Shown one piece after another: positions 2,401-44,346 of a DNA stretch of 64,000 nt (positions are counted from its first letter, which is position 1; each line of letters opens with the position of its first letter). Source of the stretch: a virus; the IMG/VR virus record IMGVR_UViG_3300033150_002805, positions 12,847 through 76,846 of that record; one strand, 5' to 3'. The position numbers and the translations under genes are program-made. The notes below the pieces were generated by a model that was given only the letters and a program-made list of their open reading frames with translations, was not told the origin of the DNA and ran no database searches.

Positions 2401-4299
2401 TTACCAATCAGAACTTCCAGCGTATGCATACTGCCACATTCCAAAACCAGCATTTCCTCGCCAACTCACACCGAAATATATTTTCTTTCTCATGAAATCT
2501 TCCCAGGTATTTCCAGCATGAGTTTCAAATGTGATATCTTTTCTTAATTGTAGGATAATTGGTTTTACTATTCCATTGGTATCCATCACACACCAGAAGT
2601 TAGTTGGCACACGAGAAGTAACATATAAATCTAACAATCCTTTCATCACATTCGTTGCAAGTTTTGTACCTGATACCTCAGTTGGGAAATATTGACTATT
2701 CAAGATTTCTCTCGCCAAGAACATGTTATTAGGATGAACTACTAACAAGTTTGGCCTGATATCCATTTCATTTCCTTTATCATCTACATATTGCATCATT
2801 GTCTGAATAGCAGTCTGCAAAGCACTAAAACTGAAAGCTGTACCTGTTGCTATATTGGATTGAATTCCTGAACTACCAGATGAATGAGATGCTGAGAAGA
2901 AGGGCTGACCATCATAACAAGTGATATCCTTTCCCTCAAATAATCCAGTACCAGTAGATAAATTACCTTGACCCAAAAGGGTATAAACCAATCTACCCCA
3001 GAATCTTTTTGCCTTATCAGCTAAATCTCGAACTCTAATATTAATCTGCCCATAAAGCTCATCTTCCAATGCATCTTTATCAACTGCTATAGTGCTTTCC
3101 CAACTGTAGTTCTTGATGCTGAAATTGTGTTCGAGTAAAGCTTCAGGAACTCGTTCATCCTTCCATTCTTTTAGTTCAGGGACTCCACCTCTATTAACCT
3201 TTTATATTTCTATAAAAGCTAGACCATCTCATCCACTAAAAGTGGTCTGACGTATGGCCGTTGAGGATCTTCAATCTCTGATAATCTAAGATATCTAAAT
3301 CAGAATACGGTCTTGAATTTGATAAGGATAAACGCCTTTCACAAAAATCTTTTATGATAGCGATTTTCCCATTTAAATCAATAGTTTCAAATCTTTTACA
3401 AAATTTAAAACATCTTTTAAGACCTAATATACTTATAACATATTTTGGTTTATTCCGATTTTTATCAAATCGCTGGATATGATGAGGAATTTTTTTATTT
3501 TCAAAGAATCTTTGAATTGAATTTTTCCCAGTTTGAGAAGTAGTAAAGAATCTAATTCTAGGAATATACTTTGTTCGTTCACCCTTATAATTTCTTTTGA
3601 TTATAGTAGCACTACCATCTCCTTCCCAAAATCCCATCAACCAATATTTATCAATTTTCATTGTTGAAATCTTCTCTTTTTCTAAACTTGATTGAAAAGA
3701 TTCTTTATAATTTTGGCGAAGCTTTGGTTCTATTTTGAGACTCTCTTTTATAATCTCAGATTGATATTTTTTGATAACTAATTTGGGATTAATCAATTTA
3801 AGCCATCTGGAAACCTGTGGATCTCCTTTGATAAAAATAGAAGTTTGAATTCTATACCAAGATTTTCGTTTTCTAATCGTAAGATGAAATTTAATCTCAT
3901 TCAACTTAAGAAAATTGATATAACAATCAATAATCTTGGAATTAGTATTCACAAATCCTATTATCGGATTCCAATATTTTCTTTTCTGTTTCTCAAAAGT
4001 AAACCAACCTTCGGCATCAAATAATCCAGCGATATAAGATTGAATTTCCTGCTGATTGCCCGTTAAAATATCTTTCATATATTACCTAATTAGTTATGAA
4101 AGCTTTAGGGTTTTCCAGCATTTAGTCAGATTTTTCATGGTCAGGTGGTTTCTAACCATGCATATGGTTCAACGGATTTCCCTGATCTAATTAAAGTAGC
4201 AACTCTTTCCCATTCAGGAACGGTCATTTTCAGTTGTTTCATAAACTCCTTTCTCATTCCCGCAAGCAATAGATTAGGTATATCTGTTTTTGTTAACAT
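2401..4299 (-). CDS. Major capsid protein (Mu gpT-like), two exons 4154-4299 and 2401-3190, 311 aa after splicing
   Basis: Exon 1 MLTKTDIPNLLLAG...EPYAW joins exon 2 to give YAWLGGVPELKEW...NYSWESTIAVD...YDGQPFFSASH...GFGMWQYAY. 146+790=936 nt, in frame. Confidence 0.88.
3191..4153 (-). ncRNA. Group I self-splicing intron (963 nt) in the major capsid gene
   Basis: Exon 1 ends in U and the intron ends in G. The IGS CCACCUGACCAUG pairs with exon 1 CAUGGUU (U-G at the splice site) and with exon 2 AGGUGG (P10). Core elements: P AAAUGCUGGAAA, Q AAUCAGCAGG, R CUCAACGGCCAU, S GAUGAGAUGGUC. Confidence 0.9.
3236..4078 (-). CDS. Intron-encoded double-motif LAGLIDADG homing endonuclease
   Basis: YIAGLFDAEG and WLMGFWEGDG motifs; lies inside the intron. 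Confidence 0.9.
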   Translation of the reverse strand: MKDILTGNQQEIQSYIAGLFDAEGWFTFEKQKRKYWNPIIGFVNTNSKIIDCYINFLKLNEIKFHLTIRKRKSWYRIQTSIFIKGDPQVSRWLKLINPKLVIKKYQSEIIKESLKIEPKLRQNYKESFQSSLEKEKISTMKIDKYWLMGFWEGDGSATIIKRNYKGERTKYIPRIRFFTTSQTGKNSIQRFFENKKIPHHIQRFDKNRNKPKYVISILGLKRCFKFCKRFETIDLNGKIAIIKDFCERRLSLSNSRPYSDLDILDYQRLKILNGHTSDHF

Positions 4300-7391: not shown

Positions 7392-10300
7392 TTATTTTGG
7401 TCTAGGCAATTTGGTCTCTTTGAAAACCCAAAAATTGCTTGTGTTTTCTCTTTCCAAGACCCATAAACCTTTTAATTTTTCGCCTTTAAACTCAAATTTT
7501 TTAAAAGAATCAGAGTCTTCATAAACAACTGCCTTTCCTTTGTCTATTATCTTAATATATGAACTCGTAGCTTTCGTAGGATTGGCATCCTCTATTCCTG
7601 GAGGCAATTTTGCCAATTCTTCCTTTGACATCTTTGCCCTTTCATTCTTTGGTGGCAAATACTGAGAAACTTCCATCCATTCTTTATATTTACAGGGTTT
7701 CCAAAGAGCGGTTACTTCCTTATTCTTCAAGGGATTCTGATTAAGAACAAAATGCATCAAGCCTGGCTGATCGGGGAAATTAAATCTTAGATCCCAATGT
7801 TCTCTAGAGACTCCCGCCCTAATAACCCTTTGCCCCCGCCACCAATGTCGTTGCAAAACAAAGGGAACTATCCTTATCTTCTTAACCTGTAAAAGTTCAA
7901 TCATAATCATTTTCATATCATTAGGCCGTTTTTCCAACCAAGTTATGGCATCTTTCAACCATTCTTTCTTAAATGGATGAAGTTCTTTAAACTCTTGGAG
8001 TGCTTTCTCAACCCTTTTGACTTTTTCTGGATAAGGAGTTCGAAGCCAGAAAGTTAAAATCTGCTGGGACAAAATATAGCGATAAGCAGCTTTTGCCCAA
8101 TTTGCACCTGGGTTCAATTTTTTCTCAACGAGAACTTTTCCAAGTTTCTCAACCAATTTATCTCGCACCTCTATTCTTTTTTTCTCATCATCGAATTTCC
8201 AATATTGAAATTCTTTAGGAACTTTTTTTCTTATCTTTTCTGGTAAAGCAGAAACTTCTTTTGGAGGAATCCATTTCTTATCAACAGCCGCATCTGAGAT
8301 CACATAAGGAGTTTCATCTAACGGCTTAACGAGGAACCACGGTGCCTCTTCCCTAAATTTTGTTTCCCTTGCTGGAGGTATGACTTCTTGTTTTTCTATT
8401 TTGCCTCGAAATTCAGCAGGTCTTAGTTGTCTGAAAAACCATCTGCCCTTAAGTTTACCGCCAGAAAAGAAATACTCATGAAAATAAGGTTTTTGAGCAC
8501 CATATTGGCAATAACCTTTATCAATAATATGGAAAACTCCTGGTGCCGTTTTTGTTGCCCCTGGTGAACCCACTGGAACTATCCCTTCGACATTCAACCA
8601 CTCAATAGGCTCAGCACTTTTCCGCATCGCAGCCAATTCAGCATATTTTTTCTTATACCCAGGTTTAATCCCAGGTCTTAACTTTGGCACTCCTTTTTTC
8701 CAGTCAATTTTCCAAATATCTTTCGAATCTAGTTCTTTTGCTTGTTTCATTGTAGTCACTGGTTCTTTAATCGCTCCCTTCACCATATCTGCAATAGTCC
8801 AACCCAACAAATAATTATTCTGTTTAATTCGAAGATCACTATGACAAGACTTTAATCTATAATGATGCTGAATAACATAAGGATATTTCTTTTCCACTTT
8901 CGGGTATTCCATATATGGATCGTGTTGTTTCTCAACTAATTCTTTAGACACTTTCTCATAAAGTTTCTTTGACCATTTTTTCATCTTTTGAGGTTCAAAT
9001 TCATGTTTCATCCGTTTCTCCTTCACCCTCTTTTTTATTTCGTTATAAATAATCCTTGCTAAACTAATAACCTGTTTCTCTGTGTATTTGAATTTGTTTC
9101 CTTCTTTGATTCTAGAATACCAAGCATTCACTATTCGCCAATCATCGGCTAATTGCTTATTATTCGGTATCTTGGGATTATATTTGATGTCCTTGATTTT
9201 TTCTAACTCAGAAAGATAAATAATCTTTCCTTCTTTCGTAATCTCCTTCTCCTGTAAACAATAATTCTTCTTTGCTCGCTCAATCGCTTCCTTAACTGTA
9301 TCGGCTTTCCTATTTACCTTACGCATCACTCTTGGTGCCCAAAGACTTATTCTCCAAGTATCATCTTTCAAATCATGTTCGACATTCAGAGTTTCACCCT
9401 CAATCTCTAGAACATCACCCTTATCAGCTTTTAAGGAAGTAGAGAAAGTTCTACCAGAACGATGATAGAAAACATTGCCAAGCTCTTCTGTTTTCATTTT
9501 ATATTTGCCAGGTTCTAAACCGAAATAATAGTTATATACCCCTTTCACTTTAGTCTCTTTAATATCAAGAACTTTGCCATAAATTGCTGTTGAATTGTGA
9601 AATTTTACCATTCCACTCCGTATACCTTTGAGATTGAATTTGAAGTCTTTTGTCTTGCAAACATTGCCTTCTGAACCTGGTAGACGCCTTAAAAACTCTG
9701 TATGCTTTCTTAATTTCTCTCTGTTCTTCGAAAGAAGATAAGGAGCAAAATTCAATTTTATCTTAATATTTGGGATTTTCCAAGTTCTTTGTTTGAAGGG
9801 CAAAGATTCAAGTAATTTCAATCTTTTTTCAAAAGGTTCATTATGAATATCAACTTTGAAATAGGGCATATCATAAACATTAGCAACGACATGAGAATCA
9901 TCAGGTATTCCTTTCTGATGAATATAACCAGCAATTACTTCTCTTGGTTTATGGTCATTATCTTCCCACCATTCCAATTCAGCCATCAATACACAATCTT
10001 CTTTAGTTAACTGTTTTACTTCTTTAACCAAAGTTGGTAGCCTATGAGTTATTACTTCACCATCTTCTGAAAAGATTTTCACTTCTTCTCCTTTTTTATG
10101 AATTTCTGCATTAAACCCATCATACTTCTTGGTCGAATAGAAAGGATATTTCCCCATATTCTCCATAACTTCTATGAACAAATCAATACTTTGTCGTTTT
10201 TCTGGATAATATCCTCTGGTTGGTTTTAGGGGCAAGAAAAATCTGAATAATTTTATCTTGTCTTCTCTTGCTGAAACCTCAGCATCCTTGATTGCTGAAG

Positions 10301-12092
10301 TAACTCGTGGTTTTTCTCTTAATTGTTTTTCGAAATCAGACAACCTAAGCATCCTATCCTTACTTCTTAACATCACTAAATTATAAAGTGGAATAGCATT
10401 TGTGAAAGGAGTTGAAAACTTATCATAAACAAAATGCAATCTTCTTCTAATCCACCAAGGGACGCTTCTAGCGATTCTGAATTCAATAATTCTTCTCATA
10501 TCAAAACTCAACCACTCTGGTAGCAATATATCCAAATCGCCTCTAGTTGAACCCTGGTTCACTATTCCTCCTGTTAAATATATCAAAGGTCTTTGAATTA
10601 TGAAATCTTTAAAATAAGGAAGGATTTCTTCCAAAATCATAAGTTTTCCCATTCTTTTTCCCGAAGTGTAAATTGGTGCCGAACCTTCACTCAAATTAAT
10701 GACAATGTTATCAGTAGCTATTATAATTGGAACTTTAGTTAACTCTCGAATTTTAGTTAACAGAACATCATCTCCATAACTCAATGGTTCTTTGCCTAAA
10801 TGAGTAACTACTATTCTTTTAACTTTGCCTGGCAAATACCAATTTTTTAATTGATTTATCAAACTACTATGCCCGTATGGTTCACCCTTTTTACCTTTCC
10901 TTCTTGCCAAGGTCCTGGTAAGAGAGGAGCCATCAATAATTGCCAAATCTAAATCTTTGACATACTTCTCTCGATCTCCAGAATGCCAGCCCAAAATATC
11001 GGTTGCTTGCAAAACTCTCTTATCTCCCATTTCAATTAGGAAAACATGCATTTTGGCTCGAATGGAATGTAAGACAGGAATTGGAGTTATCTTAAAAGGG
11101 CCAAGGTTAAAAGTCTTATAAGATTCGTATTTTGTCCTCGCATCTATATTGAAATCTTTATAAAGATTTGGAACTTCTTTTTCAGTTTCTTTGGAAACTA
11201 TAATAGCCATATCCTTCAGACCCAAAAGATGATCAGGATGAGAATGACTAACCAAAATATAATCAGGTTTGATTTTCTCTAAATTTCCTTGATTTATTTT
11301 TCCATAATCCACTAGCAGTCTCTTACCCTTATACTCATATAAGATTGAAGTATGAAATCTGTGTCCAGGACCTTCTTCTTCAATCAAACCTTTGGTTCCA
11401 TAAAATGTTACTTTATAACCCTCTTTGCTAAACCTCTCCTTGAATTTTTTTGCTTCCTTATCCAAATCGTCATCAAAAGGTTCATATTCCAATTTTCTCT
11501 TTAATATTTCATCTTTAAGAAGGATATGATAGTTAATGCAATCTTCTTTTGAAGCTGCCGATTGTTGCCAAATCTTATGGATTTCTCTGTGAAGTTTCAA
11601 AAGTTCTTCATCACTCAATTTTGCTGGATCACCAAAGTTCATACTCTTAAAAGTTACATTTTCTAACCAAACCTGAGCTCCTTTAGGTCTTAAAATTTCT
11701 TTGGGTGGATCGAATTTTGAAATGAGTTCTATTGGATAATAATATAAGAATTTTTCTTTTGACCACCATCGTTTTCTTTCATCTTCTGAAATTTGATGAA
11801 ATTTTCTCAACTCTTTAAACTTTCTTAGATTAATTTTTCTACCTTCCTTTATTTCAATAATTCCTAAAGCTTTATTATCTTCAATCAAATAAACTGGAAT
11901 CCCGATGTATTTAGTGAATTTCCTCGAGCTAACAATTGCTTTTTTCTTTCCTTTCCAAATCAAAGTTCCATGAGGTTTAACCAAGATTTTTCCAGGCAAC
12001 AAAACAGTTCTCCCAGGTTGCAAAAGCTGAGGAATATCTGACGGAACTAATAATTTTTTTAACTTTTTAGTCATCTTTTCTTGTTTTAGCAT
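7392..12092 (-). CDS. Multidomain protein: ASCH-like + MBL-fold hydrolase + nucleotidyltransferase + ATP-dependent DNA ligase + two LigD 3'-phosphoesterase-like domains; probable start 12074
   Basis: PHGTLIWKGKKKAIV (ASCH-like); SHSHPDH (MBL); LTGG..GDLDILL (NTase); KYDG, VYDM, SEGNVCK (ligase); YVIQHH..HSDLRI and FVLQRH..HWDLRF, IIDKG..KLKGLWVL (LigD PE). Confidence 0.78.
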   Translation of the reverse strand: MLKQEKMTKKLKKLLVPSDIPQLLQPGRTVLLPGKILVKPHGTLIWKGKKKAIVSSRKFTKYIGIPVYLIEDNKALGIIEIKEGRKINLRKFKELRKFHQISEDERKRWWSKEKFLYYYPIELISKFDPPKEILRPKGAQVWLENVTFKSMNFGDPAKLSDEELLKLHREIHKIWQQSAASKEDCINYHILLKDEILKRKLEYEPFDDDLDKEAKKFKERFSKEGYKVTFYGTKGLIEEEGPGHRFHTSILYEYKGKRLLVDYGKINQGNLEKIKPDYILVSHSHPDHLLGLKDMAIIVSKETEKEVPNLYKDFNIDARTKYESYKTFNLGPFKITPIPVLHSIRAKMHVFLIEMGDKRVLQATDILGWHSGDREKYVKDLDLAIIDGSSLTRTLARRKGKKGEPYGHSSLINQLKNWYLPGKVKRIVVTHLGKEPLSYGDDVLLTKIRELTKVPIIIATDNIVINLSEGSAPIYTSGKRMGKLMILEEILPYFKDFIIQRPLIYLTGGIVNQGSTRGDLDILLPEWLSFDMRRIIEFRIARSVPWWIRRRLHFVYDKFSTPFTNAIPLYNLVMLRSKDRMLRLSDFEKQLREKPRVTSAIKDAEVSAREDKIKLFRFFLPLKPTRGYYPEKRQSIDLFIEVMENMGKYPFYSTKKYDGFNAEIHKKGEEVKIFSEDGEVITHRLPTLVKEVKQLTKEDCVLMAELEWWEDNDHKPREVIAGYIHQKGIPDDSHVVANVYDMPYFKVDIHNEPFEKRLKLLESLPFKQRTWKIPNIKIKLNFAPYLLSKNREKLRKHTEFLRRLPGSEGNVCKTKDFKFNLKGIRSGMVKFHNSTAIYGKVLDIKETKVKGVYNYYFGLEPGKYKMKTEELGNVFYHRSGRTFSTSLKADKGDVLEIEGETLNVEHDLKDDTWRISLWAPRVMRKVNRKADTVKEAIERAKKNYCLQEKEITKEGKIIYLSELEKIKDIKYNPKIPNNKQLADDWRIVNAWYSRIKEGNKFKYTEKQVISLARIIYNEIKKRVKEKRMKHEFEPQKMKKWSKKLYEKVSKELVEKQHDPYMEYPKVEKKYPYVIQHHYRLKSCHSDLRIKQNNYLLGWTIADMVKGAIKEPVTTMKQAKELDSKDIWKIDWKKGVPKLRPGIKPGYKKKYAELAAMRKSAEPIEWLNVEGIVPVGSPGATKTAPGVFHIIDKGYCQYGAQKPYFHEYFFSGGKLKGRWFFRQLRPAEFRGKIEKQEVIPPARETKFREEAPWFLVKPLDETPYVISDAAVDKKWIPPKEVSALPEKIRKKVPKEFQYWKFDDEKKRIEVRDKLVEKLGKVLVEKKLNPGANWAKAAYRYILSQQILTFWLRTPYPEKVKRVEKALQEFKELHPFKKEWLKDAITWLEKRPNDMKMIMIELLQVKKIRIVPFVLQRHWWRGQRVIRAGVSREHWDLRFNFPDQPGLMHFVLNQNPLKNKEVTALWKPCKYKEWMEVSQYLPPKNERAKMSKEELAKLPPGIEDANPTKATSSYIKIIDKGKAVVYEDSDSFKKFEFKGEKLKGLWVLERENTSNFWVFKETKLPRPK

Positions 12093-12186
12093 CTAAAGGC
12101 CAACCGCACTTGCTACAGTGGCTATTTTCAGCTTTATTTTTTGTTCCACACTTAGGACAAATTTTTTTGCTTTCGGTAGATGCCAT
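12067..12186 (-). CDS. 39-aa zinc-ribbon protein (not in ORF track)
   Basis: MASTESKKICPKCGTKNKAENSHCSKCGWPLDAKTRKDD; its stop overlaps the ATG of the ligase gene. Confidence 0.7.
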   Translation of the reverse strand: MASTESKKICPKCGTKNKAENSHCSKCGWPLDAKTRKDD

Positions 12187-13642
12187 TGGTAAATTTTTCA
12201 CCTAATTTATAACATTTGGCTTCTAAATCAGGCTCATATTTTAAATTCAATAATTTTTCTTTTAAGACCTTTGGGGTTCTTGGTGCATTGATATTCAGTT
12301 CATCAGCTCTCTTCTTTTTCCCTTTTTCAAAAGCCAAAAGGGGTTTTTTTTCTTTTTCAACTTTCTCTTTCATCGCCCATTTTAATCTCAATGCTTTTGC
12401 TGTTTCTGTAACAACTTCATTAACAAAACCATCTGGTAATTTCTCTCCAGTTCTCATTATTTGATTGAATACCTCTCTTAAGAATGCTTGAGAAGCATCA
12501 GCTAGTTTTTCAAACCGAATTTCTGGATAAGATTGAGTTCCAAAATTCCAATCTATCAAAGGAGCTATCGCATAAGTATTCAGAGTGGCTTCCATTTGTT
12601 TCATAATTGATTGAATAGCTAAATCAACATATTGAGAGGCAGAAGTGCCTTTTCCATAAGGATAAGCATACTTGATTTGGTCTAAAATCTGAACCAAGGC
12701 TGACTTTGTCATTTCCCTGTTGTGATGATCAATCAATGGTAATGGATCAAAACCTTTTTCACCACCCCTTTGGATTTCCAATTCAATCCCAGGTGGCAAA
12801 GTTATTCTAGAATTTATTCCCAATGTATCCACAACCTCTTCTGCTTTTTTCCTTTCAGCCGAAGTGAGAGTTTGATTAACTTTTAAAATTTTTAAACCCA
12901 AAGTATCTATCTCAGCTTTTTTATGAGAAATATAATAAAGTTTATGTTTTTTGTCATAATGATAAAATGCAGTTTTCAAAATGGATTCTCCATAAAGCCA
13001 ATGTTTCTCTTTTTGAAAAGTGAAAAGCATGCACTTTTCTGGAGGAATATTAACATCAACAGAATACGATCCAAAAGTTGCAGTTTGATGAGCACCAGCA
13101 AATCCACCATGCCGATCAGCTTTTAATTCTATAGTTTGAGCGTCTCTCGGAGCTAATTTCTTCCATCCAACTTTGCCTTTATATTTTCCCTCTTCAATAA
13201 TTCTAGCAACTTTTTCATAGAGCCGAAATCCTTCAAAAATAGCTCTTGTCATATCAGAAATGATAAAAGGAAGTGGTGTAGTCATACCACCTAAATGAGG
13301 GGGTGATAAAAAGATAGTTTCAATAAAATCTCTTTCTCCTCTATCGTTTTCAGCGGGAAGAATATGAAAAGGAGTTGAAACTATTGGAAGTGTTAAAAGT
13401 CTAACTATTGCTTGAACCTCTCCATCGTTTCTCTGCATTTCAATGTAGGTTTGAGGTCCAAGATCGTCTGGATTTTCTTCAGTATCATAAGCTCCAATAA
13501 CTCCTTCACGAGCAATTCCCAACTCTCTAGTGAATTCTTCAAGAGTCAAAACTTTTCTCTTCTCTTCTTTTTCTACCTTTGATTCCTTTTTAGATTTTAA
13601 TATAAAATCAAAGAAAGACACGGTTATTGAACCTAGGTTCAA
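12152..13642 (-). CDS. Portal protein (DUF935/Mu gp29-like)
   Basis: YIEMQRNDGEVQA, WKKLAPR, LYGESILK, IAPLIDWNFG..YPEIRF; first gene of the head module. Confidence 0.8.
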   Translation of the reverse strand: MNLGSITVSFFDFILKSKKESKVEKEEKRKVLTLEEFTRELGIAREGVIGAYDTEENPDDLGPQTYIEMQRNDGEVQAIVRLLTLPIVSTPFHILPAENDRGERDFIETIFLSPPHLGGMTTPLPFIISDMTRAIFEGFRLYEKVARIIEEGKYKGKVGWKKLAPRDAQTIELKADRHGGFAGAHQTATFGSYSVDVNIPPEKCMLFTFQKEKHWLYGESILKTAFYHYDKKHKLYYISHKKAEIDTLGLKILKVNQTLTSAERKKAEEVVDTLGINSRITLPPGIELEIQRGGEKGFDPLPLIDHHNREMTKSALVQILDQIKYAYPYGKGTSASQYVDLAIQSIMKQMEATLNTYAIAPLIDWNFGTQSYPEIRFEKLADASQAFLREVFNQIMRTGEKLPDGFVNEVVTETAKALRLKWAMKEKVEKEKKPLLAFEKGKKKRADELNINAPRTPKVLKEKLLNLKYEPDLEAKCYKLGEKFTNGIYRKQKNLS

Positions 13643-31568: not shown

Positions 31569-32956
31569 CCGAGAAAGCTCCCGAATTTATTCGTAGAGAT
31601 GAATCGGAAAGTTCTTTAAGGGTTTGACACATATTGTTGATAGAGCGATAATGAATGTAGCGGTTAGGTCATTTTTTATGCCCGCCAAGACCTAACCGTT
31701 AAGGCGGGCACTTAATTATAAGACCATGCCAAAAGGAGTTTATAAACATAAAAGAAAATCGAAATTAGATTTAATTAAAAAGGGGAGAATAAGCGAATGG
31801 AATACCATTTGGTAAAAAAATATGAAAAAAACATTTCAGTATAGAATTAAACCAAATCTTCAAACTTATCAAAAAGCAGAAAAATGGCTTTCTCTTTGTC
31901 GTCAACTATACAATAATTGTCTTAATGAAAGGATAATTGCTTATCAAGAAAACAAGAAATCAATCTCTCAATATAATCAGATGAAAAGACTTCCTCAATT
32001 GAAGAAAGTATTTCCAGAGTATAAACAAGTCAATTCTCAAACCCTTCAAGATGTGATACAGAGATTAGATAAAGCTTTTCAGGGATTTTTCAGAAGAGTT
32101 AAATCTAAAAATGGTAAGGCAGGATTTCCAAGGTTCAAAGGGCAAAATAGATATGATTCATTCACTCTTAAACAAACAGGATGGAAACTTCAGAATCAAA
32201 ATAACTATTTGGAAATAAAGAACATTGGCAAATTTAAGATTTTTCTCTCCAGACCAATTGAAGGCGATGTTAAAACAATAACTATCCGCAGAACTTCAAC
32301 TAATAAATGGTTTGTCTCTTTTGCTTGCGAGAATGTTCCTCAAAAAATACTTCCCAAAACAGGAAAAGAAATTGGAATTGATATGGGTTGTCAGTCATTT
32401 CTGACCGATTCTAATGGCAATAAAATTAACAATCCAAGATTTTTCAAAAAATCTCAGGATATTCTTAAAATGAGACAGCAAAGACTTTCTCAAAAAGTTA
32501 AAGGCTCTAATCGTAGAAATAAAGCAAGATTATTGGTAGCTAAAATTCACGAGAAAATTTCTAATCAACGGAAGAATTTTCACTTCAAAATAGCAAATAA
32601 ACTAATTAAAGAAAACGATAAAATCTATATTGAAAAGTTAAATTCTTTTAAATCTTTTAGAAGTCTAAATAAATCAATAAAAGATGTAGCTTGGTTTCAG
32701 TTCTTTAATATTCTTGCTTTCAAAGCGGAGGAGGCTGGGAAGCAAGTTATTAAGGTTCCAGCTAAAAATACATCTCAAGTCTGTTCCAAATGCGGAAAGA
32801 TAGTAGAAAAAGATTTGTCTGTCCGTATTCATAAATGTCCTTTTTGTGGATTAGAAACAGACCGTGATTGGAATTCAGCTTTAAATATTCTTAGGCTCGG
32901 GCAGAGCCTTCGGTTAATCCCGAGAATCTCCTGACTTCAGTCAAGGAGAGTGTCAA
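31569..32956 (+). mobile_element. IS200/IS605-family non-autonomous (TnpB-only) element
   Basis: Follows TTTAA; left-end hairpin aagctcccgaatttattcgtagag; right-end hairpin ctcctgacttcagtcaaggag ending in TCAA; no tnpA in the window. Confidence 0.8.
31822..32934 (+). CDS. tnpB: RNA-guided endonuclease TnpB
   Basis: HTH LYN, GFPRFK, RuvC GIDMG/IEKL/DRDWNSA, zinc finger CSKC..CPFC. Confidence 0.93.
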   Translation: MKKTFQYRIKPNLQTYQKAEKWLSLCRQLYNNCLNERIIAYQENKKSISQYNQMKRLPQLKKVFPEYKQVNSQTLQDVIQRLDKAFQGFFRRVKSKNGKAGFPRFKGQNRYDSFTLKQTGWKLQNQNNYLEIKNIGKFKIFLSRPIEGDVKTITIRRTSTNKWFVSFACENVPQKILPKTGKEIGIDMGCQSFLTDSNGNKINNPRFFKKSQDILKMRQQRLSQKVKGSNRRNKARLLVAKIHEKISNQRKNFHFKIANKLIKENDKIYIEKLNSFKSFRSLNKSIKDVAWFQFFNILAFKAEEAGKQVIKVPAKNTSQVCSKCGKIVEKDLSVRIHKCPFCGLETDRDWNSALNILRLGQSLRLIPRIS

Positions 32957-42201: not shown

Positions 42202-44346
42202 ATGTTCTGGTTCAAAAGAAAAAAATACGAAATAGCATTGGGAGCAGTCCCTGAACCCTTTGATATTCGAGACCATAGAATTGAAGAAGTATTAAGAGCT
42301 TTCCCATCTTTTGATTGGGAGAAAGGATTTGATATTGAAGAAAAATTGGGAATTAAAATACCGATTAAAAATCAGGGAAGTTCAGGAAGTTGCGTTGGGC
42401 AGGCTTGGAGTTATTATGCAGGAATTTTAGAAGCGTTTGAAATTGGGATTTATAGGGAAAAATCAGCTCGTTGGATTTATTCTCAGATTTATTTACCGAA
42501 TGGAGGAGCCTATCTGAGGCAAGGTGGAAAAATATTGACTAATCAGGGAGTAGTGCCAAGCGTTCTATTTCCAGACAAAAGAACTGAAATGGAAATGCGA
42601 GAGAGAAAAGACGCTACCAAAGATTTAGAAGCAATCGCTAAAGTCTATTTGAAAGAAAATTATTTATCAATTCCAGAAAGAAATATAGATGAAATTGCCT
42701 CAATTATGGCAATGAATAATGGTTTCGTTTCAGGAGTTAAGGACGACTTCACACAATGGAATTCCGCCTTTCCTAAAATGGGAATTAAAGATGACAATGG
42801 ACACGCTTTATATTTCTGCAAAGCCAGAAAAATAAATGGCAGAAAATATCTTGGATTTATTAATTCCTGGGGATGTTATGATAAGAGGACAGAAATTTTA
42901 ACTGATAAAGGATGGAAATCCTTTGAAAATTTAGACGGAACGGAAAAAGTTGCAACATTAAATCCAGATATTCATGAATTAGAATATCAAAAAATTAAAA
43001 AGAAATTCATTTATGATTATGATGGGTATCTTTGGCATTATAAAGCAAGAGATATTGATTTACTGATTACTCCAAATCATAAATTATATATTCAGCCAAC
43101 ACGTAGAAATAAATGGTTATTATTAGAAGCAGATAAGATATGGATTAAAGGATTTAGAATGAAAAAAAATGCTAAATGGCAAGGAAGAGAAAAAAGATAT
43201 TATCAGATTGGTAAAAAGAAAATTCCAATGGATTTATGGCTTGAATTTTTAGGATATTTTATTTCAGAAGGTCATATTTCTTTTAATAAATTTTGGCGAA
43301 AAGAAAGAATTAGAAAGAGGAAATATAAAGTAAAAGGAGAATTATTAAGAGATCCTAAGACTGGAAAGTTTATTCCTTCTCCAAAAAAAAAGAAAAAGAT
43401 TATAAAAGAATGCTGGGTTAAAGAAAAACCTTATAAACAATTTACTTATATAACTGGTATCAGTCAAAAGACAAAAAATTCAAAAATAGAAAAATGCCTT
43501 TCTCGATTACCTTGGAAATTTAGTTATTATAATCATACTTTTTCTACAAACAATAAAGATTTATATTTAGAATTAAAACCATTAGGAAAAGCTCCTCAAA
43601 AATATATTCCTAACTATATTAAACAGTTATCATCAAGACAATTAAGAATATTTTTTAAAGCCTTAATGTTAGGAGATGGAAGTGGAAACCCTTTAAAAAA
43701 ATGGACTTATTATACTTCCTCTAAAAGATTAGCAAATGATGTTCAGGAAATTCTATTAAAAATGGGTTGGGCGGGAGATATTTCTTTTACTGATAGACGA
43801 GGAAGAAAAAATAAAAAAGGAATAACAAAATTTATTGAATATAGAATTGGAATTAAAACAAAAGAATTAACTCCAGGAAAAAAATGGAAACCTAAATTAG
43901 TTCCATATAAAGGAAAAGTTTATTGTATAGAAGTTCCAAATCATTTAATTTATGTTAGAAGAAATGGAAAAGCTGTTTGGAGTGGGAATTCAGACTGGGG
44001 AGACAAAGGATGGGGATGGTTAGGAGAAGAATGGATCAATGCTGGTAGATTTTTCAATCCAAAAACAATTATGGATTTACCATCAGAAGTAGAAAGAAAA
44101 ATGGAGAAACCGCATTATATCTTTAACAACAATTTAAAATATGGAATGAAGAATAATGAAGAAGTTAAAAAACTTCAAGAATGTCTGGCTTATGAAGAAT
44201 GCTTCCTTTATCCAGAATTCACTGGTAATTTTTATGGATATACATTAAGAGCAGTTCGTTGCTATCAGGCTAAATATGGCATTGAACCTATTTCAGGATT
44301 TGTAGGACCAAAAACAAGGGCAATGTTGAATAAACACTTTGCCTAA
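42202..44346 (+). CDS. Papain-like (C1) peptidase with C-terminal peptidoglycan-binding domain (putative endolysin), containing an intein
   Basis: NQGSSGSCVG, GHAL, NSWG; C-terminal L.YG...VKKLQ..L..TG.F...T..AV..YQ...G.VGPKTR..LN. Confidence 0.82.
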   Translation: MFWFKRKKYEIALGAVPEPFDIRDHRIEEVLRAFPSFDWEKGFDIEEKLGIKIPIKNQGSSGSCVGQAWSYYAGILEAFEIGIYREKSARWIYSQIYLPNGGAYLRQGGKILTNQGVVPSVLFPDKRTEMEMRERKDATKDLEAIAKVYLKENYLSIPERNIDEIASIMAMNNGFVSGVKDDFTQWNSAFPKMGIKDDNGHALYFCKARKINGRKYLGFINSWGCYDKRTEILTDKGWKSFENLDGTEKVATLNPDIHELEYQKIKKKFIYDYDGYLWHYKARDIDLLITPNHKLYIQPTRRNKWLLLEADKIWIKGFRMKKNAKWQGREKRYYQIGKKKIPMDLWLEFLGYFISEGHISFNKFWRKERIRKRKYKVKGELLRDPKTGKFIPSPKKKKKIIKECWVKEKPYKQFTYITGISQKTKNSKIEKCLSRLPWKFSYYNHTFSTNNKDLYLELKPLGKAPQKYIPNYIKQLSSRQLRIFFKALMLGDGSGNPLKKWTYYTSSKRLANDVQEILLKMGWAGDISFTDRRGRKNKKGITKFIEYRIGIKTKELTPGKKWKPKLVPYKGKVYCIEVPNHLIYVRRNGKAVWSGNSDWGDKGWGWLGEEWINAGRFFNPKTIMDLPSEVERKMEKPHYIFNNNLKYGMKNNEEVKKLQECLAYEECFLYPEFTGNFYGYTLRAVRCYQAKYGIEPISGFVGPKTRAMLNKHFA
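42874..43989 (+). mobile_element. Intein (372 aa) with LAGLIDADG domain
   Basis: Starts CYDKRTEILTDKGWK; block B TPNH; FLGYFISEG and LMLGDG; ends VYCIEVPNH..VWSGN with +1 Ser. Confidence 0.92.

Follow-up and report, generated by a model that had tools for sequence, protein, structure and literature searches.

Introns that interrupt the capsid genes of phages have been described before. In the mycobacteriophage LittleE, splicing of a capsid-gene intron with gp14 was shown by reverse transcription PCR and by N-terminal sequencing of the protein (Pope et al. 2013, PMC3706429), and the capsid-gene intron of the lactococcal phage Tuc2009 is cited in the same paper. Group I introns have also been reported in the major capsid protein (MCP) genes of crAss-like Delta/Zeta phages (Yutin et al. 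2021, PMC7886860). Moreover, overlap of an intronic open reading frame (ORF) with the ribozyme core at one or both ends has been reviewed under the 'core creep' hypothesis, with overlaps of up to 81 nt among the examples (PMC3073962; PMC3984707). Here we analysed a window of 64,000 nt, bases 12847-76846 of the IMG/VR virus record IMGVR_UViG_3300033150_002805 (76.8 kb, with direct terminal repeats). In this uncultured phage, the capsid gene is almost certainly split by a mobile group I intron that carries an endonuclease ORF interleaved with the catalytic core. The intron is a new instance of a type of selfish element that is already known. The rarity implied by an earlier note on this DNA was overstated: capsid-gene introns are published in LittleE and Tuc2009 (PMC3706429) and in crAss-like Delta/Zeta phages (PMC7886860), and overlap at both ends is reviewed as 'core creep' (PMC3073962).

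The LittleE intron resembles that of the window in its length of ~0.8-1 kb, its location in a tailed-phage major capsid gene, its LAGLIDADG-related endonuclease and its intron-less close relatives. However, the LittleE endonuclease gene is directed leftward, on the strand opposite to the capsid gene, and the intron type is only tentatively group I, whereas the window has a sense-strand ORF interleaved with the core and a capsid of Mu gpT type. The td intron of T4 with I-TevI (PMC3073962) shares with the window a group I ribozyme, an ORF in the P6 loop, translation signals sequestered in a hairpin, an early in-frame stop of the exon and an ORF whose 3' end enters the core (P6a/P7 in td). It differs in its GIY-YIG enzyme, in an overlap of 20 nt at the 3' end only, in its nucleotide-metabolism host gene and in having P2 and P7.1/P7.2, which are absent from the structure of the window intron. 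The intron in the large subunit ribosomal DNA of Synechococcus lividus (Table 1 of PMC3073962) likewise has a LAGLIDADG ORF that overlaps the core over a long stretch (81 nt; P6, P7, P3, P8 and P9), but that ORF lies in P8 of a bacterial rRNA intron, whereas in the window it lies in loop L6 within a phage protein gene and the overlap is split into 42 + 42 nt. The crAss-like Delta/Zeta phages (PMC7886860) are also metagenomic phages with MCP genes split by endonuclease-bearing group I introns, sometimes several per gene, to be compared with a second intron on a contig related to the window (L087, below). They belong to another phage order and capsid family, however, and PMC7886860 covers no ribozyme structure or ORF/core overlap.

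The split gene and its insert are laid out as follows; RF00028 is the group I model of Rfam, and the mini-ribozyme is the intron with loop L6 replaced by GAAA.

4154..4299, minus strand: exon 1 of the Mu gpT-like major capsid gene, from ATG 4299; 48 codons and the first 2 nt of the Leu49 codon; matches PF10124 profile positions 4-41 and aligns with homologues without gaps
3191..4153, minus strand: group I intron, 963 nt, with a core of ~204 nt and the 759-nt loop L6; supported by partial RF00028 matches, covariation and the mini-ribozyme fold (z = -5.7)
3236..4078, minus strand: homing endonuclease ORF, 280 aa, in L6; double-motif LAGLIDADG; intron nt 76-918 of 963
2401..3190, minus strand: exon 2 of the capsid gene; third base of Leu49, 262 codons and stop; PF10124 E 3.4e-44, phrog_371 E 1.7e-50

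A listing of ORFs on the minus strand gives three separate frames of 52 aa (4299-4141), 280 aa (4078-3236) and 222 aa (3069-2401), the last of which is open upstream to 3190. The PF10124 match of exon 1 (E 3.9e-4) ends at profile position 41 and that of region 3189-2401 begins at position 44, with coordinates contiguous over the junction; the same region matches phrog_371, 'major head protein'. The 5' exon ends with ...GCA TGG TT (4154) and the intron starts with AGAAACC (4153); the intron ends with ...UAAUAG at omega-G 3191 and the 3' exon starts with A GGT GGA GTC CCT (3190). Joining of the exons gives a protein of 311 aa with the reading ...YAWLGGVPELKEWKDER, and across ...SVEPYAWL|GGVPELKEWKDER... 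this protein has no gap against 25 uninterrupted homologues, the closest of which are 311-312 aa long and 74-79% identical. The restoration of WLGGVP predicted by the earlier note is thereby confirmed, as are its exact splice sites at 3191-4153, which agree with P1/P10 pairing, with covariation and with the gapless alignment of homologues. The expected junction of the spliced RNA is ...GCATGGTT|AGGTGGAGTC....

The insertion point lies between bases 2 and 3 of the Leu codon in the conserved W-L-G-G motif. A further 158 capsid loci from IMG/VR and GTDB genomes are more distant; of these, 147 have W-[LIMVF]-G in an open frame at the insertion codon, and none of the 11 flagged loci has a stop within 12 codons upstream of it. 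Presence or absence of the intron is polymorphic within a narrow clade.

On unspliced RNA, the reading frame of exon 1 is closed by UGA 4143-4141, four codons into the intron. This stop counts against readings that need no RNA splicing, in which the insert is an intein or a free-standing endonuclease gene dividing the capsid gene. Inteins often contain LAGLIDADG domains, and the genome seems to carry an intein at 42202-44346; but the ORF has its own start and a different frame arrangement, and its flanks form a covarying group I ribozyme with a guide that pairs to both exons. A Pfam scan of the insert found no Hint domain. We rejected these readings, which are contradicted by frame and covariation and have a negligible probability.

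Helices of the intron were placed by hand and with the minimum free energy (MFE) fold of the mini-ribozyme.

4136..4160, minus strand: P1, exon CAUGGUU 4160-4154 with GACCAUG 4142-4136; U.G at the 5' splice site; encloses the P10 guide
4148-4143 with 3190-3185, minus strand: P10, guide CCACCU with AGGUGG; one compensatory pair
4125..4130 with 3251-3246, minus strand: P3, UCUGAC with GUCAGA; pseudoknot with P7; compensatory C-G to U-A in L087
4120-4116 with 4054-4050, minus strand: P4, UGCUG with CAGCA; P4-P5-P5a arm at 4050..4120; RF00028 positions 60-138; in the MFE fold
4110-4108 with 4061-4059, minus strand: P5, CCC with GGG; two compensatory pairs
4102-4095 with 4079-4072, minus strand: P5a, CUUUCAUA with UAUGAAAG; AGGU in the loop; ORF AUG 4078-4076 in the 3' strand
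4037..4049, minus strand: 5' strand of P6, GGAAAUUCAAUCU; ORF codons Q10-S14; pairs with 3277-3265
3265..3277, minus strand: 3' strand of P6, AGAUUGAAGAUCC; codons R268-L272; identical in the window, L086 and L087
3264-3260, minus strand: J6/7, UCAAC; catalytic core 3222..3264
3259-3254 with 3227-3222, minus strand: P7, GGCCAU with AUGGUC; one compensatory pair
3244-3234, minus strand: P8, CACUUUUAGUG; CACU with AGUG; contains the stop UAG 3238-3236; two compensatory pairs
3233-3228, minus strand: J8/7, GAUGAG; catalytic core
3217-3200, minus strand: P9 hairpin, UUUUAUA-GAAA-UAUAAAA, GAAA-capped
3191..3217, minus strand: P9 and tail region, with the 3' tail GGUUAAUAG ending at omega-G 3191

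The core runs from P3 to P9 in canonical order with the P3/P7 pseudoknot, and the P, Q, R and S elements are all placed. Without the ORF, the mini-ribozyme folds at -65.5 kcal/mol (the z-score being relative to mononucleotide shuffles), and its MFE fold recovers P1, P4, P5, P5a, P6, P7, P8 and P9. P6 closes the 759-nt loop by pairing of GGA-UUCAAUCU with AGAUUGAA-UCC, in 11 pairs with 100% of cells paired. By-eye inspection found P5a with the sequestered AUG in all four intron sequences (listed next). A search of the minus strand from the 5' splice site to the ORF start revealed no sigma-70-like promoter.

On three contigs found by a scan of metagenomes (L086, L087 and L088), the capsid gene carries this intron at the identical codon; their endonucleases are 71%, 64% and 48% identical to the window ORF, respectively. 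L088, in which the capsid gene is more diverged, contributes the 5' part only. On the alignment of these three with the window intron, with 55 pairs and 180 pair cells, 99.4% of cells are paired, and nine base pairs show compensatory double changes (P1 x2, P10 x1, P3 x1, P5 x2, P7 x1 and P8 x2). Controls with slid partners gave 0-1 compensatory pairs, and one of 500 shuffles reached the observed value. The U.G pair of P1 at the splice site is invariant in the four sequences and two other P1 pairs covary, including silent exon changes. In L086, the Leu codon carries a silent U-to-C change and the guide a matching A-to-G change; in L088, an Ala-to-Pro third-base exon change is paralleled by U-to-A; and for P10 in L087, where the exon has gone from GG to CC (Gly to Ala), the guide has gone from CC to GG. 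Because this compensation involves exon bases, the guide sequence is tied to its capsid target, and covariation of P1 and P10 should be the expected behaviour of a working internal guide sequence. A blastn search with the intron against 50,697 GenBank phage records gave no match, and neither did exact or gapped searches of IMG/VR with the ribozyme core pattern.

From this anatomy, the precursor mRNA would adopt the helices P1-P10 and the P3/P7 pseudoknot, and an exogenous guanosine docked in P7 would attack after the U of the P1 U.G pair (4154|4153). P10 would then align the 3' exon while omega-G (3191) enters the G site, and ligation of the exons would produce the 311-aa capsid protein; ribosomes on unspliced exon 1 would stop at the UGA in the intron. 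Translation of the endonuclease, whose AUG is buried in P5a and whose frame reads through P4, P6 and P7, may be mutually exclusive with ribozyme folding on each RNA, and such exclusion would hold endonuclease output low relative to capsid output.

The 280-aa ORF has two motifs, YIAGLFDAEG (4036-4007) with the acidic residue E23 and WLMGFWEGDG (3643-3614) with D154, both at catalytic positions; G18, G24, G149 and G155 are invariant among its homologues. Its LAGLIDADG nature, proposed in the earlier note, is confirmed by the PF14528 match (E 9e-8, 32.7 bits, cut-off 22.5), and PF00961 matches the second domain at E 3e-4 with 22.0 bits, slightly below its cut-off of 23.1. An AlphaFold2 model from 24 homologues, with a predicted local distance difference test score (pLDDT) of 91.8 and a predicted template modelling (TM) score of 0.89, has two alpha-beta-beta-alpha-beta-beta-alpha domains in a pseudo-dimer saddle. 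Its top Foldseek matches are I-OnuI, I-SmaMI and I-PnoMI (E ~1e-11, TM 0.67-0.74). As modelled, the ORF product belongs with the monomeric double-motif LAGLIDADG endonucleases of I-OnuI type, and it would presumably cut the intron-less allele (...GCATGGTTAGGTGG...) in co-infecting relatives, after which repair would copy the intron in.

Among 1.8 billion protein representatives, the endonuclease has homologues of 64% (P0121), 44% (P0122) and 38% (P0123) identity. A sequence search of the Protein Data Bank gave nothing meaningful, and a single-protein search of IMG/VR with the endonuclease gave no relative. Distant matches of the endonuclease (L083-L085 and L089-L095) are without an NQQ start, a motif described below, and several lie in archaeal rRNA operons; we regarded them as uninformative for the window intron. 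The more distant LAGLIDADG relatives L091, L093, L094 and L095, found via the motif GLFDAEGW, lie inside archaeal small subunit (SSU) rRNA genes or rRNA operons of metagenomic contigs, and in L093 the SSU match spans 2258 nt compared with a model of 1478 nt.

The ORF enters the core at both ends, by 42 nt each. At the 5' end, codons 1-14 coincide with P5a', P5', J5/4, P4' and the 5' strand of P6, and G7-N8-Q9-Q10-E11 (GGC AAU CAG CAG GAA) corresponds to P5', J5/4, P4' and the start of P6. At the 3' end, codons 268-280 and the stop coincide with P6', J6/7, the 5' strand of P7, the 3' strand of P3 and P8, and L272-H279 (CUC AAC GGC CAU ACG UCA GAC CAC) covers J6/7, the 5' strand of P7, the 3' strand of P3 and the 5' strand of P8. 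Because no alternative start codon (ATG, GTG or TTG) lies between 4078 and the first LAGLIDADG helix, the 5' overlap is not an artefact of annotation. Third codon positions are identical in the window, L086 and L087 at 20 of 27 overlap codons, compared with 94 of 253 codons in the ORF body (Fisher p = 3e-4), and this conservation fits a double constraint on the overlap bases. Hence, codon-by-codon placement and third-position conservation both uphold the claim of the earlier note that the ORF overlaps Q (P4') and R (J6/7-P7-P3'). The structural model has confident helices of the fold at residues 9-23 and 260-272, where the P4'/P6 and P6' codons lie.

Matches to RF00028 were obtained in E-value mode and are partial. 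The R/P7/P8/S/P9 part (3355-3200) scores 24.8 bits with E 9e-4, the P4-P6 part (4120-4028) scores 15.6 bits with E 0.51, and the 759-nt L6 insert lies between the two. Alignment to the RF00028 consensus extends over the R and S regions, and the homologous intron in L087 scores 30.8 bits. At the gathering threshold, Rfam gave no match in the whole window. The Infernal group I model, which the earlier note had suggested as a check, gave these two partial matches and stayed below its gathering score.

Several points weigh against a working, interleaved intron. The RF00028 scores are under the curated gathering score of Rfam (50 bits), the case for splicing is an argument from sequence anatomy, and the homologous introns number just 3-4, which makes the counts small. 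In addition, the exclusion between translation and splicing is an analogy with T4 td/I-TevI, and residues 273-280 (J6/7 through P8) are modelled as disordered. Because RF00028 stays below its gathering score, identification of the intron rests on covariation and on the exon junction; and because residues 273-280 are modelled as disordered, the far 3' tail may be passive read-through without protein function.

The low Rfam score would also suit a decayed intron relic that no longer splices, in which the capsid gene would be dead or expressed as two polypeptides; the record is moreover a metagenome assembly with a CheckV completeness listed as 45. However, all helices are intact, compensatory changes are kept in four diverged copies, both exons are strongly conserved as protein (at the 74-79% identity given above) and the endonuclease ORF is unbroken and retains its two catalytic acidic residues. 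The record also bears direct terminal repeats, and the major capsid protein is indispensable to a phage. We consider decay very improbable, and expect that the window intron would splice itself in vivo and that the 280-aa ORF may home to the intron-less target.

The NQQ start of the ORF is shared by many relatives. An NQQ motif is present in 76 of the 150 best endonuclease homologues, mostly in the form [D/G]-N-Q-Q and close to or at the N-terminus. With a codon-degenerate DNA pattern for M-D-N-Q-Q...D-G-E-G, 55 IMG/VR loci were recovered; they hold 47 unique ORFs, which form 37 clusters at 60% identity and have a median pairwise identity of 29%, on contigs with GC contents of 0.30-0.60. In these unique ORFs, the Asn of NQQ is AAU in 46 of 47, and its Gln codons are CAG in 94 of 94, compared with 30% CAG for other Gln codons of the same ORFs. 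Because the codons are fixed as AAU-CAG-CAG, the NQQ peptide motif is dictated by the J5/4-P4' strand of the ribozyme. UGCUG, the 5' strand of P4, is found upstream in 46 of 47, mostly 55-60 nt before the AUG and in the context UGCUGGAAAcUCCUAAAG, compared with 22% for random windows of the same loci.

The 3' elements are also read through in many MDNQQ ORFs, the R element as L-N-D-Y-T (CUCAACGACUACACG) or S-S-E-T-T-R (CCUCAGAGACUACACG) and the S element as E-D-I-V-Q (GAAGAUAUAGUCC), and some ORFs use the UAG inside AUAGUC as stop. Stop positions vary among family members, lying in P8, in J8/7-P7' or before R. As judged from these codons, ORF/core overlap is a family trait and not a peculiarity of the window intron. 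A search of the available literature library found no paper that mentions an NQQ motif together with LAGLIDADG. Phage group I introns of a large family, on IMG/VR contigs (L176-L230), share UGCUGGAAAcUCCUAAAG-P5a-GGAU..ACA-AUG GAC AAU CAG CAG, with a LAGLIDADG ORF that starts just before P4'.

Fixation of the NQQ codons at the nucleotide level, by which RNA dictates the peptide, is also what passive 'core creep' would give. On that account the overlap bases are selected as RNA only, and the encoded peptide (MKDILTGNQQ, NGHTSDHF) is tolerated and non-contributing, so that the bases are not truly dual in function. The varying stop positions match the prediction of the hypothesis (PMC3073962), and model confidence is low for residues 273-280 and 1-10, whose pLDDT block means are 59 and 65. 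However, the 5' overlap is unavoidable for lack of an alternative start before the first LAGLIDADG helix, and the helices at residues 9-23 and 260-272 lie within the fold. We regard a purely passive overlap as possible but rather unlikely. It is probable, in our judgement, that a large and old family of phage group I introns, the window intron among them, evolved its LAGLIDADG gene and ribozyme as one interleaved unit, in which conserved peptide signatures are translations of core elements and not protein motifs. In such a unit, the N-terminal M-D-N-Q-Q (AUG GAC AAU CAG CAG) would be J5/4 and P4' (the Q element), the C-terminal L-N-D-Y-T or S-S-E-T-T-R would be the R element, and E-D-I-V-Q would be the S element.

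In L087, a second and different group I intron interrupts the capsid gene (L087:1122-1305) after ...DAIEDE. It scores 29.8 bits with RF00028 (E 2e-5, the match being cut by the contig end) and begins its own LAGLIDADG ORF (...GILMGDGYLS); the window gene is uninterrupted at that site. Database 'capsid' proteins P0015, P0017/P0271, P0046 and P0048, of 221-228 aa, start with E-x-Y-G-Q, the second intron site of L087, and the N-terminal residues of P0015 and P0046 are non-homologous. These proteins are probably exon fragments of intron-bearing genes.

The head module of the window includes a Mu-type portal at 12152-13642, with a protease/scaffold-like gene between portal and capsid gene. A head-module protein of 1566 aa at 7392-12092 (minus strand) has a metallo-beta-lactamase-fold domain and an ATP-dependent DNA ligase domain. 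A 714-aa ORF at 42202-44346 (plus strand) has the look of a papain-like peptidase (NQGSSGSCVGQAW) with a C-terminal PG_binding_1 domain, and is apparently interrupted in frame by a LAGLIDADG intein (...NSWG|CYDK...VWSGN|SDWG...; LAGLIDADG_3 at residues 481-532), which would be the second LAGLIDADG selfish element of the genome. At 31822-32934 (plus strand) lies a TnpB/IS605 OrfB-like gene (PF01385 E 1.5e-24; Cas12f1-like TNB domain E 6.5e-22). No tRNA genes were found in the window. With respect to the host, a scan of GTDB genomes with the capsid protein gave matches of at most 45% identity only, in diverse bacteria, and the PG_binding_1 domain of the lysin-like gene suggests a bacterial host.

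For annotation of this phage and its relatives, recognition of the intron matters because the split capsid gene is otherwise annotated wrongly, as an ORF of 52 aa, an endonuclease and a fragment of 222 aa; the database 'capsid' proteins of 221-228 aa may stem from the same intron cause or from the second intron site. The window offers a clean, covariation-backed case in which the most abundant virion protein would depend on RNA self-splicing, and in which ~84 nt of the catalytic core double as protein code. The family-level NQQ result is the more useful by-product, giving direct evidence of an RNA structure that dictates a conserved 'protein motif' at ~29% identity, and it bears on the co-evolution of introns and endonucleases. 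If ribozyme and gene did evolve as one interleaved unit, the 5' overlap would have been fixed once and inherited, not produced by repeated 'core creep'. The signatures MDNQQ..., ...LNDYT and ...EDIVQ would then serve as a sequence-only flag, and a practical search handle, for hidden group I introns in phage metagenomes.

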